Assembly (NCBI GenBank): GCA_963727825.1
Contig: CAVSHO010000012.1
Span: forward strand, 1-64,000
Reading direction: 5' to 3'
DNA: 64,000 nucleotides
Source of the DNA: Ignavibacteriota bacterium
GTDB taxonomy: Bacteria; Bacteroidota; Ignavibacteria; UBA10030
Shown here piece by piece: positions 12,025 to 62,022 of the stretch. The translations under genes were made by a program, and so were the position numbers. Every line of letters begins with the position of its first letter. Position 1 is the stretch's first letter. The notes beneath the pieces are model-generated. The model saw only the letters and a program-made list of their open reading frames with translations, searched no databases and was not told the origin of the DNA.

Positions 12025-12441
12025 CTAAGTTGGGAGGGAGTTATACTCCCGACTGTATTGCAATTTTTAGTTCGGGAGAACATCTCCCTCACAACTTTGG
12101 CACAAAAGTAATACTCATCCAAGTGAATAGCAAGGTGCGGACTACACTTCTCGTTGCACAGAAGTTATAATCTAAGTTGGGAGGGAGTTATACTCCCGAC
12201 TGTATTGTAATTTTTAGTTCGGGAGAACATCTCCCTCACAACTTTGGGTGGCTCGTGTAATTGTGTCGGTCTTCTGCCCGTTGAACCTTGATTTTGTGAT
12301 CATGCTCCTACTTCCAATCCCTTCCCTGGTATACAGAGTTGATGCACATCCGGTACAAAAGTAATGCCTAAGTTGGGAGGGAGTTATACTCCCGACTGTA
12401 TTGTAATTTTTAGTTCGGGAGAACATCTCCCTCACAACTTT
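12025..12441. repeat. REPIN-like 74-bp hairpin array A (copies 12025-12098, 12172-12245, 12368-12441)
   Basis: CTAAGTTGGGAGGGAGTTATACTCCCGACTGTATTGyAATTTTTAGTTCGGGAGAACATCTCCCTCACAACTTT. The arms are imperfect inverted repeats. Confidence 0.92.
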
Positions 12442-12495
12442 GGTACAAAAGTAATACTCATCCAAGTGAATAGCAAGGTGCGGACTACACACAGC

Positions 12496-12530
12496 AAAGC
12501 CCGATTTCGTGACCAGAATATCGGGCTTTT
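12496..12530. terminator. Terminator-like hairpin (duplicate of the one after sod)
   Basis: AAAGCCCGAT...ATCGGGCTTTT, with a near copy at 17809-17844. Confidence 0.6.
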
Positions 12531-12673
12531 ATCGTTACTGATTATGTACATGCAAATCAGGTCTTGTTTATATACAGAGTTACCTTCAAAAGGGCCGAAA
12601 GCCTGATTTCCCTTTTTCTTTCAAGATTGCTTCCTCTTTCATTACACTGTTCTATTTCAAGTTTCTTCTGTAA

Positions 12674-16637: not shown

Positions 16638-16928
16638 TTGATTAGATCCTCTCTGGCGGTAATTCATTAATGACCGCCAAAAACACTCCGACTTGTTTTT
16701 TTCACTTCAATAAAATCTTGAAATAACATGCGATACAAGGCATACTATTGATATGAAAGTTAGCGAGTATTCTTTGCCGATGCGGGGAACAGTTGGATAA
16801 CAATCTAATTATGTTTTTATACGTGTCCATATCCCTTACCTCCAATCCCTATAATTGGCGTATGAGTTATAACACTGCTGGTGTTAAACTAACAAACCAC
16901 TGAGTGAAAAGCAAGATGCGGCTGCGCA

Positions 16929-17755
16929 CTAAGTTGGGAGGGAGTTATACTCCCGACTGTATTGCAATTTTTAGTTCGGGCTCCTTTTACATTTTATTGA
17001 TGCGGGAAATAACCCTAAGTTGGGAGGGAGTTTTACTCCCGACCCAATTCAGAACATTCAACAGTAATAACCGAGTGATCATCTTAAAGATAATTCCTCG
17101 CACTTGTTCCGTTGTACAGGATTTTCGTGCAAGTAATCTAACTTCTGTTAAAAGAAATCTTTTGCATCATTTGCGATGGAATGGTAACAAACACGCTCCG
17201 CCATTCAACAATAGTGGTCGTAATAAAATAGAGATTAACGCCGGGGGTAATTTTCCAGTGTCTCATATTTTATTATTGCAATTTTTAGTTCGGGAGAACA
17301 TCTCCCTCACAACTTTGGGTGGCTCGTGTAATTGTGTCGGTCTTCTGCCCGTGGAACCTTGATTTTGTGATCATGCTCCTACCTCCAACCCTTTCCCTGG
17401 TTTACAGAGATGATGCACATCCGGTACAAAAGTAATGCCTAAGTTGGGAGGGAGTTATACTCCCGACTGTATTGCAATTTTTAGTTCGGGAGAACATCTC
17501 CCTCACAACTTTGAAATTCTTCGGAATGATTTGGTGCGAAATGGTGTCGGATATATGTATGCTGAAACTTGCTTTTGTGTCCATACTCTTACCTCCAATC
17601 CCTATAATTGGTGTATGAGTTATAACACTGCTGGTGTTAAACTAACAAACCACTAAGCGAAAAGCAAGATGCGGCTGCGCACTAAGTTGGGAGGGAGTTA
17701 TACTCCCGACTGTATTGCAATTTTTAGTTCGGGAGAACATCTCCCTCACAACTTT
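16929..17755. repeat. REPIN-like hairpin array B (16929-16980 truncated, 17015-17316 split by the RAYT remnant, 17439-17512, 17682-17755)
   Basis: Same 74-bp unit as array A, and the inter-repeat segments are also shared with array A. Confidence 0.92.
17044..17266 (-). pseudogene. Internally deleted REP-associated tyrosine transposase (RAYT, Y1/HUH family)
   Basis: Three fragments in different frames: MRHWKITPGVNLYFITTTIVEWRSVFVTIP, DFF*QKLDYLHENPVQR and SARNYL*DDHSVITVEC. The HUH segment is missing. Confidence 0.85.
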
Positions 17756-17808
17756 GGTACAAAAGTAATACTCATCCAAGTGAATAGCAAGGTGTGAGCT
17801 GCACACAG

Positions 17809-17844
17809 CAAAGCCCGATTCCGTAGTTACAGAACCGGGCTTTT
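17809..17844 (-). terminator. Probable terminator of the suf-sod operon
   Basis: AAAGCCCG...CGGGCTTTT hairpin about 35 bp past the sod stop. Confidence 0.6.
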
Positions 17845-17878
17845 ATTGTTACTGATGACTCGTAACTTTTAACTGCTT

Positions 17879-39678: not shown

Positions 39679-39911
39679 TTACTAGCAAATGCCCAAAGTG
39701 TTTTTCCATAATGCTATCTTTTACATTGACTTCCTCCCCTTTTAGGGGAGGACTTCTCCACTCCTTTGAGGAGAGGGAAATATTTCTCTATTTACTAAAA
39801 AGATCTAGAGAAGTTATAATTAATAAAATAAGTAAGCTCGACTGTATTTCCAAGAGACACATTATTTTTTCGTAATAATATGCTTTTAGTGATTCTATTT
39901 TCAGACATAAT

Positions 39912-39951
39912 AAAAAAGAAGCCCGTAAGCGTAATACTCACGGGCTTCTTT
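39912..39951 (-). terminator. Rho-independent terminator after the tRNA-Leu 3' duplicate
   Basis: AAGAAGCCCGT...ACGGGCTTCTT followed by a T-run on the minus strand. Confidence 0.8.
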
Positions 39952-39952
39952 G

Positions 39953-40055
39953 TGCCGAAGGGGGGACTCGAACCCCCACTCGATTTGAGTCGAACCTCGT
40001 AGAACGAGGCAAGCTGTATTTTGAGTCCAGTTTATCCCGACAAAGTCGGGACGCG
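39953..40055 (-). pseudogene. 3' duplicate of tRNA-Leu interrupted by two hairpin insertions
   Basis: Matches 40303-40365 except one substitution and inserts at 39995-40013 and 40031-40051. Confidence 0.9.
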
Positions 40056-40298: not shown

Positions 40299-40302
40299 TC
40301 AG

Positions 40303-40388
40303 TGCCGAAGGGGGGACTCGAACCCCCACTCGATTTGAGTCGAACTGGATTTTGAGTCCAGCGCGTCTACCAGTTCCGCCACTTCGGC
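40303..40388 (-). tRNA. tRNA-Leu(CAA)
   Basis: GCCGAAG acceptor, CTGGA-CT CAA AA-TCCAG anticodon arm, long variable arm, GGTTCGAGTCC T-arm. Confidence 0.96.
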
Positions 40389-40624
40389 GCTTCGTTTATT
40401 AAATATATCAAGGAATGACCTGCGAAACAAGTTTTTTTCTTCAACAACTCTCAGAGTGTTTGAAAATTTCAAACTCACTACTTCGATACTAACTCGTCTG
40501 CTCTACATTCTAGCGGGACGAATTATATTCAAAAGAACAGTTGCCAAATGGAACTGTACGGCATCCTGCAATTTATTACTTTGAGCGGTAGAATACTTTG
40601 GAAGTCTTATGTAACGCATTAAAC

Positions 40625-44479: not shown

Positions 44480-44651
44480 TTTTTTGTCTCCTATATTTTT
44501 ATTCTTAAATAATTTTCTGCGTCAATATACCCCGAAATGGAAGGAAAGTCAACGCACGAAATTTTAAACGCCTATATTGACTTTCGGAAAAAAATGGAGA
44601 TATATTAAGGTAAAGCTCATCAGTATTGATGAGTTTTTTAAATGATGTGAT

Positions 44652-44897
44652 TCCGCGATAGCTCAATGGTAGAGCATGCGGTCCGATCATCGCACAAGCG
44701 ATGATCGAGATCTCGTCCCGATAAAATCGGGACGGACTGTTAACCAGACTTTGAAATAGGGAATTATTTTTCATTCCGCGATAGCTCAATGGTAGAGCAT
44801 GCGGTCCGATCATCGCACAAGCGATGATCGAGATCTCGTCCCGATAAAATCGGGACGGACTGTTAACCAGACTTTGAAATAGGGAATTATTTTTCAT
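44652..44897 (+). repeat. Two identical 123-bp tandem units: tRNA-Asn 5' half with a 55-bp cruciform insert, plus a 29-bp spacer
   Basis: Units start at 44652 and 44775. The intact tRNA starts one period later at 44898. Confidence 0.92.
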
Positions 44898-44972
44898 TCC
44901 GCGATAGCTCAATGGTAGAGCATGCGGCTGTTAACCGCAGGGTTGTAGGTTCGAGTCCTACTCGCGGAGCCA
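44898..44972 (+). tRNA. tRNA-Asn(GTT)
   Basis: TCCGCGA acceptor, TGCGG-CT GTT AA-CCGCA anticodon arm, GGTTCGAGTCC T-arm and encoded CCA. Confidence 0.96.
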
Positions 44973-45034
44973 ATTCATTTTGCCGTACCGCAGACGGGAT
45001 TTGTTGTTTATAAGAGACTAACTCAAAACTACCT

Positions 45035-45273
45035 TTGTTTTATTTATATATACTCATCTGAATTTAATGGAATGTTTTAAGTTGGTATTAGTCCGAAAAT
45101 CTTAGAACAGCGGCTTGAATTTACCATCTTTCAATAGGTAATGGATTCACAGCACGATATCGTCCCTGGAAATTAGTATACACGAAAGGATATCCAACGC
45201 GACAGCTGGCTCGAGTGCTGAAAAGAAAATCAAAACAAGGAAAAGCAGATCGATGATTTAACATTTCATCTAA
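45035..45273 (+). pseudogene. Decayed GIY-YIG nuclease gene
   Basis: Fragments LFYLYIL, VGIS, LEQRLE, GNGFTARYRPWKLVYTKGYPTRQLA and AEKKIKTRKSRSMI, with stops and frameshifts. Confidence 0.8.
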
Positions 45274-45320
45274 TGATGTTTGGGATTATTCGGATTATTA
45301 ACCATTCCGTCGATTTCTGA

Positions 45321-45403
45321 CTGTAGGGTTGTAGGTTCTCCCGCTCCATCATAATGGAACGGGACTATTAACCCCGACGTTTTATGTCGGGGCTCTCGGA
45401 GCA
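45321..45403 (+). pseudogene. Degenerate 3' duplicate of tRNA-Asn with two hairpin insertions
   Basis: ctgtAGGGTTGTAGGTTC[hairpin]CTA[TTAA+hairpin]CTCtCGGAGC, compared with ccgcAGGGTTGTAGGTTCgagtcCTACTCGCGGAGC in the intact gene. Confidence 0.8.
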
Positions 45404-45413
45404 CTTATAAATG

Positions 45414-45444
45414 AAAGGTCGAAATAGATTTTCGACCTTTTTTT
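45414..45444. terminator. Rho-independent terminator
   Basis: AAAGGTCGAAA...TTTCGACCTTTTTTT. Confidence 0.8.
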
Positions 45445-45482
45445 CTTACACCCATCTCAGAAAGAAAAATATTTTCTTATTT

Positions 45483-53165: not shown

Positions 53166-53241
53166 TGGGCCCTGCTGGGCTCTCCGCCAAAGGCGGATGC
53201 GCCTTCCACCAAAAAATGGCGGACAAGCTGGCGCAGAACCA
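53166..53241 (-). pseudogene. 3'-end duplicate of tRNA-Ile2 with nested hairpin insertions in the T-loop
   Basis: TGGGCCCTGCTGGGCTC[53183-53235]GAACCA matches the 3' 23 nt of the intact gene. Confidence 0.85.
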
Positions 53242-53255
53242 CGGCTTATTTTTTG

Positions 53256-53329
53256 TGGGCCCTGCTGGGCTCGAACCAGCGACCCGCAGATTATGAGTCT
53301 GCTGCTCTAACCAACTGAGCTAAGGGCCC
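53256..53329 (-). tRNA. tRNA with CAT anticodon, probably tRNA-Ile2 (lysidine)
   Basis: GGGCCCT acceptor, GCAGA-CT CAT AA-TCTGC anticodon arm and GGTTCGAGCCC T-arm. It lacks initiator features. Confidence 0.92.
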
Positions 53330-53660
53330 AATGTTAACTTAAATTAAAATCTCTTATCTATTTTTGAAGATCTACGACCCGCAGATTATGAGTCTGCTGC
53401 TCCCCGCCCGACTGCACGATGCAATCGTGCGGGCAGGTAACCAACTGTTTACCCGCCGTGCCTTACCTTTTGGCGGGAGCTAAGGGCCCGAATGTTAACT
53501 CAAAATTAACAATCTCTTATCAATTTTTGAAGATTTAGGACCCGCAGATTATGAGTCTAGATGCTCCCCGCCCGACTGCACGGAATGCATACTCGTGCTG
53601 GGCAGTTCCCAACTGATTTACCCGTCCGTGCCTTATTTTATGCCGCGAGAGCTCGACGAA
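53330..53660 (-). repeat. Two upstream tandem units: spacer plus tRNA-Ile2 5' portion with two hairpin inserts (second unit degenerate)
   Basis: Copies at 53375-53489 and about 53539-53660. Inserts at 53403-53437 and 53448-53477. The spacer AATGTTAACT...TTTTTGAAGAT is repeated. Confidence 0.85.
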
Positions 53661-53736
53661 GCTCGTGACGGGAATCTAACTATTAGATAAATTGCACATG
53701 TAAAAATAACCCACTCTTGACGATTTCTCGTGCGCA

Positions 53737-61770: not shown

Positions 61771-61905
61771 AAAATAAACATCCTTGCAGTCCCGCATAGC
61801 GGGACGAGGTATTTTGTCACTCCCGCGTACGCGGGAGTCTAACGTTCTGGATTCCTCCCGACTTTGTCGGGACGGGAATGACGCCGCAAGCGGCGGGGTA
61901 TTAAA
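61771..61905. repeat. Composite palindromic element, same outer family as 3039-3173 (inverted), with a different inner REP doublet and two hairpin inserts
   Basis: ATAAACATCC...GAGGTATT[TGTCACTCCCGCGTACGCGGGAGTC...CTGGATTCC..CGGGAATGA]CGCCGCAAGCGGCGGGGTATTAAA. Confidence 0.78.
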
Positions 61906-62022
61906 TCCGAAAAAGAATTAAATTATTTTTTCTCCTTCCCCAAAAGGGAAGGTGACTAATCAGATAAAATAGTTCTGACAATTATCATAAATTATGACGA
62001 CAAATAAATAATATGCATAATA

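Follow-up and report, generated by a model that had tools for sequence, protein, structure and literature searches.

The closest described analogues of the element reported here are the mobile open reading frames (mORFs) of fungal mitochondria, known from atp6, atp9, cox2 and nad3 of Glomus and from atp6 of Allomyces (PMC3630166). According to the available extracts of that report, an endonuclease open reading frame (ORF) of the LAGLIDADG type, or of the GIY-YIG type in atp9, is inserted together with a replacement gene end; the host gene stays whole, the displaced native end lies downstream, and the elements spread horizontally (PMC3630166). The same order of intact gene, endonuclease ORF and displaced duplicate of the gene end was found at the tRNA-Asn and tRNA-Leu genes of a 64,000 nt stretch of an Ignavibacteriota genome (the window; GenBank assembly GCA_963727825.1, contig CAVSHO010000012.1, positions 1 to 64,000), and in 35 of 47 comparable loci of other genomes. 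The tRNA-Asn locus is probably a decayed copy of a small mobile cassette, approximately 0.3-0.5 kb in size, that lives in tRNA genes. The cassette is made up of a stand-alone minimal GIY-YIG gene of the UPF0213/Slx1-like type and a hairpin-disrupted copy of the target tRNA. In the mORF report, as far as its extracts extend, the targets are organelle protein genes, whereas the cassette targets bacterial tRNA genes. It also differs from mORFs as described there in that the duplicate can be either the 3′ or the 5′ part of the gene and carries a clade-specific hairpin at a cloverleaf junction, and in that the nuclease is a bare 85-aa UPF0213/Slx1-like domain.

A looser analogue is SegB of phage T4, a free-standing GIY-YIG homing endonuclease encoded in the phage tRNA gene cluster, which promotes inheritance of the tRNA region and, according to a 2026 abstract, also segmental amplification (PMC2330249, PMC13096335). 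SegB and the cassette both place a GIY-YIG gene among tRNA genes, but SegB, a phage protein, belongs to the I-TevI/Seg type, while the profile of the cassette nuclease matches I-TevI at E=0.0098 and UPF0213 at 3.5e-19. The SegB abstracts mention neither a partial tRNA duplication nor a hairpin, both of which are present in the cassette. Sequence, fold and minimal-domain build are shared with UPF0213 (BH0048, 1ZG2, and EF2693, 1YWL) and with Slx1, a structure-specific nuclease that works with Slx4 (PMC1564403); in the extracts of that paper the Slx1-like group is described without mention of tRNA linkage, tRNA fragments, hairpins or mobility. In a search of the full-text literature, with most subscription journals outside its scope, no description was found of a minimal GIY-YIG gene between a tRNA and a hairpin-disrupted partial copy. 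We regard mobile ORFs that carry an endonuclease and make their target whole by partial duplication as known, and rate as new the class of target, the branch to which the nuclease belongs and the presence of a hairpin.

The window includes three tRNA genes, Leu-CAA, Asn-GTT and Met-CAT, predicted by ARAGORN; Rfam at gathering thresholds returned the same three and nothing else (Table 1). An earlier note on this DNA, made from the sequence and its ORF list, had placed a GIY-YIG pseudogene missing from the ORF track behind the intact tRNA-Asn. No ORF of at least 25 aa is listed on the + strand of the window between 45014 and 45410, an ATG is absent from the pseudogene start, where there is a TTG at 45035, and the two peptides quoted in that note lie in different forward frames of 45030-45283 (FTARYRPWKLVY in one, EKKIKTRKSR in another). 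On its own, as a single frame with X at stops, the pseudogene matches Pfam GIY-YIG below the cut-off (E=0.045; 14.5 bits, cut-off 22.6), and the remaining two frames have no Pfam match. A profile of the relatives of the Leu-linked nuclease nevertheless picks 45119-45253 (E=4.8e-4) from 3756 six-frame pieces of the window, with the runner-up at E=2.8, and this profile search of all six frames revealed no further nuclease remnants in the window. A database search with the pseudogene frame retrieved two intact 85-aa proteins, P0045 (E=4.4e-10) and P0046 (E=1e-7), both of which belong to Pfam GIY-YIG above the cut-off (1.3e-14 with 54.6 bits, and 5.8e-14, respectively). By tblastn, P0045 aligns with the window in a colinear series of three pieces, each in a frame of its own: residues 5-33 with 45042-45131, where a stop interrupts the frame, residues 30-71 with 45122-45247 (64% identity, E=4.5e-15), and residues 61-75 with 45214-45258. 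The pseudogene therefore contains at least two frameshifts and one stop. Its catalytic residues are in different frames, and hence no product can carry all of them. The GIY-YIG similarity of 45035-45260 is thus real when frameshifts are tolerated. The further claim that the Asn nuclease clearly differs from the Leu one holds, as P0045, the nearest intact relative of the pseudogene, is only 36% identical to the Leu-linked nuclease over 64 aa.

The degenerate tRNA-Asn copy, which had also been noticed together with its two hairpins and a terminator, comprises an anticodon-loop-like GGATTATTAACC and, past its second hairpin, a remnant of the acceptor 3′ strand, CTCTCGGAGCA. Between these, 45320-45338 matches tRNA-Asn positions ∼39-57 in 17 of 19 bases (local score 14; maximum 11 in 500 shuffles of the flank), and the hairpins are at 45339-45364, in the T loop, and at 45372-45392. 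This layout is that of locus L040 of another genome, in which GTAGGTTC is followed by a TCCCG..CGGGA hairpin in the T loop and then CTA. The 5′ part of the same tRNA is present upstream of the intact gene in two tandem units of 123 nt, each consisting of tRNA-Asn positions 1-31, a hairpin CGATCATCGC..GCGATGATCG, a hairpin TCCCGATAAAATCGGGA, the anticodon loop CTGTTAACC and a 28-nt leader. The exact identity of the two units suggests a very recent duplication or gene conversion.

The Leu element is intact, and the final codons of its nuclease gene read through a hairpin, TCCCGACAAAGTCGGGA (40035-40051). The anticodon arm of the partial tRNA-Leu copy is degenerate and bracketed by two hairpins, one at 26|27 and one just before position 44. 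At the tRNA-Met locus the nuclease is absent, and a hairpin, TCCGCCAAAGGCGGA, located ∼55 nt 3′ of the tRNA is directly followed by the stub and then a terminator; both copies upstream of this tRNA contain two hairpins in the D region and then a leader, and the distal copy is the more degenerate. The window would thereby display three stages, with the Leu element intact, the Asn element reduced to a pseudogene and the Met element to the hairpin and stub alone. Perfect GC-rich hairpins number 44 in the window, against 10.4 ± 3.4 in shuffles, and are clustered at the three loci and at a few intergenic spots. Two further GC-rich hairpins, TCCTCCCCTTTTAGGGGAGGA and a weaker one, are found beyond the terminator of the Leu element, at 39732-39780. 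A group I intron in a tRNA gene was considered and rejected, as Rfam finds just the three tRNAs in the window and the nuclease lies outside the intact tRNA.

Table 1. Features of the three tRNA loci of the window, with coordinates in the window.
Feature	Position	Strand	Basis or description
123-nt tandem unit 1, upstream of tRNA-Asn	44650-44772	+	score 30; 0/500 shuffles as high
123-nt tandem unit 2	44773-44895	+	100% identical to unit 1
Intact tRNA-Asn (GTT)	44898-44972	+	ARAGORN and Rfam, 72.9 bits
GIY-YIG nuclease pseudogene, tRNA-Asn-linked clade	45035-45260	+	three frames, one in-frame stop, no ATG
Degenerate partial tRNA-Asn copy	45292-45403	+	sequence match and hairpins; layout as in L040, L017 and L106
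Intrinsic terminator	45414-45447	+	11-bp perfect stem (45414-45440), then T run
Terminator of Leu element	39915-39951	-	3′ of partial tRNA-Leu copy
Partial tRNA-Leu copy with hairpin CCTCGTAGAACGAGG	39952-40030	-	positions 44-87 exact (44 nt), score 44
Intact GIY-YIG nuclease ORF, 88 aa	40032-40298	-	PF01541, E=3e-15, 56.7 bits (cut-off 22.6)
Intact tRNA-Leu (CAA)	40302-40388	-	ARAGORN, Rfam
Met-clade hairpin TCCGCCAAAGGCGGA and exact tRNA-Met stub	53166-53197	-	positions 58-75; score 18; 0/500 shuffles as high
Intact tRNA-Met (CAT), nuclease absent	53255-53329	-	ARAGORN, Rfam
Two successive partial tRNA-Met copies	53373-53672	-	positions 1 to ∼50, upstream of tRNA-Met; score 28

The AlphaFold model of the Leu nuclease is of high confidence, with a predicted local distance difference test (pLDDT) score of 92.4, and has the order beta-beta-alpha-beta-alpha-alpha. 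UPF0213 BH0048 (1zg2) and Slx1-Slx4 structures were the top Foldseek matches to this model, with I-TevI at rank 14 and UvrC at rank 45, and the family profile gave 3.5e-19 for 1zg2, 2.7e-14 for 1ywl, 2e-9 to 2e-7 for SLX1 chains and 0.0098 for I-TevI. The family profile was needed for this, as phmmer with the single P0045 sequence found no match among PDB sequences. Since both the profile and Foldseek put UPF0213 and Slx1 first, the nuclease is regarded as a stand-alone, Slx1-like minimal GIY-YIG protein. Its 85-88 aa correspond to the catalytic domain alone, with no DNA-binding domain according to Pfam and the structure model, and sequence-specific recognition by the protein by itself is consequently doubtful. 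P0045 has 2482 matches among cluster representatives at E≤1e-3, and the best 150 of these are mostly 80-130 aa, the longer ones that were inspected being read-through or tandem fusions. R26, H30 and E62 are invariant in the Leu clade (44 sequences), where Y5 and Y16 are at least 90% conserved, and Y17, G19, H31 and E63 are invariant in a set of 122 sequences; we take the conserved Tyr, Arg, His and Glu positions to be the equivalents of the I-TevI catalytic residues. A classical homing endonuclease of the I-TevI/Seg type was rejected, there being no tethered DNA-binding domain and a score of 19 bits for the NCBIfam group I intron endonuclease model (cut-off 56); the NCBIfam search gave no match above cut-off. 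The nuclease was not counted as a defence gene either, because the PADLOC matches were marginal and partial for the protein P0001 (best E=6e-4) and nil for P0045.

Proximity to tRNA genes can be read from the proteins themselves. Many of the 44 relatives of the Leu-type nuclease in the protein collection end in RVPT(S/L)S(R/G), which is a translated hairpin, and in five of them (P0009, P0010, P0011, P0022 and P0023, read by eye) the N-terminal extension is a read-through of tRNA-Leu; this peptide is also encoded by ORF 40299-40478 of the window, and P0005 seemingly includes the tRNA-Leu gene too, in another frame. A translation of tRNA-Asn opens P0049 and P0058, and another frame of this tRNA opens P0050 and P0071, while other near relatives of P0045 appear to open with translations of tRNA-fMet and tRNA-Asp (isotypes decoded by eye). 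In P0171 the translation runs through a tRNA 5′ part with insert, present in four tandem copies, then an intact tRNA, and then the nuclease. Further tRNA-derived N-termini occur in P0072, P0119 and P0122, and such gene-calling artefacts reveal the neighbouring tRNA even where no contig is at hand.

Loci of other genomes were collected with a degenerate DNA pattern for T-x3-RPWKLVY, using one genome per species. At least 119 loci were obtained, 80 with flanks of 2 kb and 39 with flanks of ∼0.3 kb, and the counts given here and below are for the 119 listed loci. A GIY-YIG ORF at E<1e-10 is present in 101 of them, with 118 ORFs in total; the other 18 are chance matches, mostly in Streptomyces, and were used as a control. 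A tRNA on the same strand lies within 250 nt of the nuclease ORF at 70 of the 101 loci, and 19 of the 31 others have a flank shorter than 250 nt. Counted by ORF, the tRNA is upstream in 48 cases (7 of these also have one downstream) and only downstream in 24, at -28 to +39 nt from the stop codon; 46 ORFs have none, and many of these are inner copies of tandem arrays. Not one of the 118 ORFs has a tRNA on the opposite strand only. The density of tRNA genes is 1.64 per kb within 330 nt and 0.086 per kb beyond 500 nt, and no tRNA was found in the 59 kb of the 18 chance loci.

Two arrangements can be distinguished, type U (tRNA, nuclease, disrupted copy) and type D (disrupted copy, nuclease, tRNA). 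A partial copy of the same tRNA, mostly of positions ∼45-76, lies 20-110 nt past the stop codon in 35 of the 47 type-U cases that could be evaluated (threshold score ≥13; maximum 11 for reversed-tRNA controls). Of 30 cases with the tRNA downstream, 22 have a partial copy, mostly of positions 1 to ∼20-38, at a distance of 4-115 nt ahead of the nuclease (control maximum 12). An extra 5′ copy upstream of the tRNA, like that of the Asn locus of the window, was seen at 10 of 39 type-U loci where this could be assessed. At 16 of the 101 loci the nuclease gene is repeated in a tandem array of two or three copies, the period being 283-543 nt.

Perfect GC-rich hairpins are concentrated around the nuclease: the 150 nt flanking the ORF on each side contain 4.1-5.6 per kb, and more distant DNA 0.3-1.2 per kb. 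Three families were recognised: TCCCGA..TCGGGA (34 near the ORF and 1 beyond 450 nt), TCCGCC..GGCGGA (21 near and 3 far, mostly in the Met clade) and CCTGCC..GGCAGG (8 near and 2 far, mostly type D). The seventh pair of the TCCCGA family is complementary in 21 of 21 cases (T-A in 13, A-T in 7 and C-G in 1) and the loop lengths vary, which fits a conserved stem-loop and not a palindrome bound as a duplex. The hairpins being palindromes, their strand is uninformative. Their position is always between the nuclease and the partial tRNA copy, at set tRNA coordinates. At Met-, Asn- and Asp-linked loci the hairpin takes the place of positions 38-47, the left flank extending to 37 and the right starting from 48-51, and at Ala-, Ser- and some Met-linked loci it takes the place of the whole anticodon arm (position 26 followed by 44). 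In type D it is cleanly inserted at 21|22, and Arg-linked loci have clean insertions at 45|46 and 61|62.

A duplicated tRNA 3′ part is a familiar trace of integrative islands, and on that basis the loci might be relics of integrase islands, with the tRNA 3′ duplications as att sites and the nuclease as leftover cargo. This origin is extremely unlikely, given that the repeats are 0.3-0.5 kb apart and enclose the nuclease alone, that no integrase ORF is present at the three window loci, that type-D loci duplicate the 5′ part, and that the hairpins replace internal tRNA segments in register. An island brought in by a tRNA-targeting integrase was likewise dismissed for the window, where the repeats enclose just the 88-aa nuclease ORF, the pseudogene or nothing, and for the arrays with their periods of 283-543 nt.

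Some of the pseudo-tRNAs retain a full cloverleaf in which the anticodon arm alone has been swapped for the hairpin, and these are mis-called by ARAGORN. Examples are a 91-nt "tRNA-Cys gca" in L048 (2197-2287) and a "tRNA-??? agta" ∼60 nt past the nuclease stop codon in L065; the called "anticodon" is the loop of the TCCCGA hairpin in both, a likely source of false tRNA annotations. Cloverleaves of this kind, still recognised as tRNAs in L048 and L065, would agree with a role at the RNA level, in which the nuclease is expressed from the tRNA transcript and acts on tRNA or other RNA, the linkage being functional and not a matter of mobility, and in which the hairpin-swapped copy is a signal for mRNA processing or stability (RNase P/Z entry, 3′ protection) or a non-decoding tRNA mimic. 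The overlap of the type-D stop codon with the tRNA start (offsets of -7 to -28), behind the tRNA promoter region, points the same way, as does an Slx1-like domain fused to a TrmH-type tRNA methylase, reported in the extracts of PMC1564403. However, a terminator separates the tRNA from the nuclease in L017 and L095, pseudogenes and nuclease-less relics are common, and a housekeeping function leaves unexplained both the tandem arrays and the presence of different elements at one locus (see below). We regard a role of this kind as distinctly improbable.

The earlier note had proposed that different nuclease variants pair with different tRNAs. A nuclease tree labelled by the adjacent tRNA was built with IQ-TREE in "quick" mode from 110 rows, one labelled row per locus (tree A); a first tree of 112 rows included the tandem copies (tree B). 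The alignment has 92 columns, many forks are unresolved, and metagenome-assembled genomes may carry wrong taxon labels. On tree A the isotype requires 27 changes, compared with a mean of 50.1 and a minimum of 43 in shuffles of the labels (69 rows, 16 isotypes; 0/500 as low), and the hairpin family requires 4 versus 17.2 (43 rows, 3 families; 0/500 as low). The U or D arrangement is weakly clustered, with 13 changes versus 17.0 (13/500 as low). These shuffles, for all three labels, leave shared descent in place. On tree B, the 8 Asp rows need one change, the 9 Met rows two and the 7 Asn rows two, and the Ser, Leu and Pro rows are unclustered. The pairing of clade and isotype is accordingly strong but not absolute, and the proposal is supported. 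The pseudogene piece of the window groups with P0045 and P0046 (support 99, tree B) inside a 12-row clade (support 98) that includes tRNA-Asn-linked nucleases of Balneolota and Bacteroidota. On the same tree, one clade keeps one isotype across Balneolota, Bacteroidota and Chloroflexota, and the Asp clade spans Thermodesulfobacteriota, Myxococcota and Bacteroidota.

The upstream flanks of loci L044 and L053 are orthologous (88.8% over 152 nt) and lead into tRNA-Asp in both. L053 continues with the intact tRNA-Asp, a terminator, the nuclease and a hairpin-bearing remnant, and L044 with tRNA positions 1-37, a TCCCGA hairpin, a degenerate T arm, a different nuclease and then the intact tRNA-Asp. 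The intact tRNAs are 100% identical, whereas the L044 nuclease is not alignable to that of L053 by blastn, and a single tRNA-Asp locus has therefore been occupied by two different elements. This pair includes no strictly empty site. The disrupted copy of L044 sits on the native flank, which agrees with the order of foreign and native ends in mORFs as outlined in the extracts, though the tRNA segments are too short and conserved to tell them apart. Decay is apparent from the three states in the window and from partial-domain ORFs, which make up 10 of the 118 (5 of them away from contig ends) despite the pattern demanding an intact motif. Of the cycle of invasion and decay put forward in the note, decay is thus borne out and invasion is backed by the two elements at one tRNA-Asp locus; cleavage and homing, "as homing elements do", are an inference. 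L040 and L118, from Balneolaceae and Chitinophagaceae metagenome-assembled genomes, are 93.6% identical over 373 nt of tRNA-Asn and nuclease DNA, which may be due either to recent transfer between phyla or to mis-binning; the L118 sequence is too short for the borders to be visible.

These data also bear on the possibility that the nuclease is a passive resident, i.e. a host or hitch-hiking nuclease gene in tRNA units, the partial copies being by-products of tRNA duplication, the hairpins being REP-like (repetitive extragenic palindromes) elements able to settle in any non-essential DNA, and the match of clade and isotype a result of old loci descending vertically. Hairpins of the same kind do occur in the window in intergenic DNA without tRNAs, and the limit of the label shuffles noted above leaves shared descent uncontrolled. 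The block common to L014 and L101, which is near-identical, comprises promoter, fragment, nuclease and tRNA and ends exactly at the tRNA 3′ end, could be simple orthology; each of the other close pairs has at least one locus too short to give the borders. For the stand-alone Slx1-like branch, mainly vertical inheritance was argued by Dunin-Horkawicz et al. in the part of their paper available (PMC1564403), a view that also counts against a mobile cassette. Set against passive residence are the tracking of nuclease clade by hairpin family (4 versus 17.2 changes), the location of the hairpins at fixed cloverleaf coordinates over isotypes and phyla, and the links of a single clade to a single isotype that cross Balneolota, Bacteroidota and Chloroflexota or Thermodesulfobacteriota, Myxococcota and Bacteroidota. 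To these are added the two different elements at the orthologous tRNA-Asp locus and the two diverged nucleases (36% identity) next to different tRNAs in one genome. Passive residence appears unlikely on this evidence.

If the locus is a mobile cassette, as preferred here, the cassette would enter the cognate tRNA gene by recombination stimulated by a break or nick made by the nuclease, and the tRNA-derived stretches flanking the hairpin would be the homology arms. A crossover in the 3′ arm would give rise to type U, as at the Asn and Leu loci here, and one in the 5′ arm to type D. The donor could be a circle (Campbell-like) or another chromosome (break-repair homing), with the same two outcomes, and one working tRNA would be left after either crossover, much as mitochondrial mORFs spare their host gene by bringing a replacement end. 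Unequal recombination between the repeats would generate the tandem arrays, and after fixation of a copy its nuclease would be lost to frameshifts and deletion. A mechanism of this type would account for the strict placement of tRNA and nuclease on one strand, for the arrays and for copies that are in register, and would explain why nuclease clade, isotype and hairpin family are inherited together. The kinship with Slx1, taken with hairpin junctions at the bases of cloverleaf arms, suggests that the nuclease recognises structure and not sequence.

Several observations weigh against a mobile cassette. The protein of 85-88 aa is a catalytic domain alone, and neither Slx1 nor UPF0213, to which it is related, is known to serve mobile elements as a nuclease. 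The activity of the nuclease, its target and the route of recombination are what we infer from the arrangement of the loci. The intact neighbouring tRNA keeps the full presumed target, and it is not obvious how self-cleavage would be avoided; at the Leu locus both copies of the 3′ part match each other over all 44 nt. An exact stub persists at the Met locus, from which the nuclease has gone, a poor fit to a simple age-graded decay. Ser, Leu and Pro rows do not cluster on the tree, similar hairpins are present away from tRNAs in the window (e.g. at 61789-61952), and at 12 loci whose flanks are long enough ARAGORN calls no tRNA within 250 nt. P0045 had no tblastn match in 50,697 phage records and one weak match only in the plasmid collection. 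The sample itself is biased, as the pattern takes in only proteins with RPWKLVY and leaves out the Leu-type clade (RRPFQLL), and many of its loci are from metagenome-assembled genomes, the binning of which may be wrong.

REP sequences with their REP-associated tyrosine transposases (RAYTs) and IS200/IS605 elements with TnpB guide RNAs combine short conserved hairpins with a small nuclease gene, and their hairpins are scattered. The cassette resembles them in that hairpins are tied to a nuclease gene and target-derived sequence adjoins a structured element end, but it has a GIY-YIG nuclease and neither a Y1 transposase nor TnpB, and any guide function is hypothetical. TnpB-type guide RNA systems are treated in the abstract of a review on OMEGA (PMC13565253). 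By analogy, the hairpin and the adjoining tRNA stretches might be the targeting module of a guide- or structure-directed GIY-YIG homing system, a rather unlikely elaboration. The nuclease would then bind the clade-specific hairpin, the flanking tRNA fragments would pair with the target, and cutting would occur at the bases of cloverleaf arms (26|27, 43|44, 37|38, 48|49 and 21|22); solo hairpins could be scattered in trans, as RAYTs do with REPs.

Should the mobile cassette be confirmed, a large group of proteins named "GIY-YIG nuclease family", with no function annotated and deemed to be of a vertical, repair-type kind, would turn out to be widespread selfish cassettes of tRNA genes, present, according to the record titles of the sample, in Bacteroidota, Ignavibacteriota, Balneolota, Chloroflexota, Patescibacteria and others. 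Partial gene duplication, described for protein genes of mitochondria, would be a third way, after introns and inteins, for a nuclease element to reside in an essential gene without destroying its function. The tRNA fragments, hairpin-laden pseudo-tRNAs and tandem arrays of tRNA parts in these genomes would be explained, as would two annotation artefacts, the calling of pseudo-tRNAs with a swapped anticodon arm as tRNAs and the protein models whose N-termini come from translation of a tRNA gene. Through the fixed positions of the hairpins it becomes testable by what means a nuclease lacking a DNA-binding domain reaches its target.

Elsewhere in the window, five GC-rich hairpins are located in intergenic DNA at 61789-61952, with no tRNA near, and one of these, TCCCGACTTTGTCGGGA, shares its stem with the hairpin at the end of the Leu nuclease gene; the cluster may be what is left of an element after complete decay, or its hairpins may have spread in trans. 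RecR, encoded next door to the Asn locus (gene order recR-ybaB-tRNA-Asn-MFS), has relatives that are 96-99% identical, and those that are named are from Bacteroidota or Ignavibacteriales metagenome-assembled genomes. Direct repeats of 146-240 nt at 12025-12542 and 16835-17856 (91-98% identity between the two regions) bracket ∼5 kb, and each repeat holds the paired small hairpins GGGAGTTATACTCCC and GGGAGAACATCTCCC.

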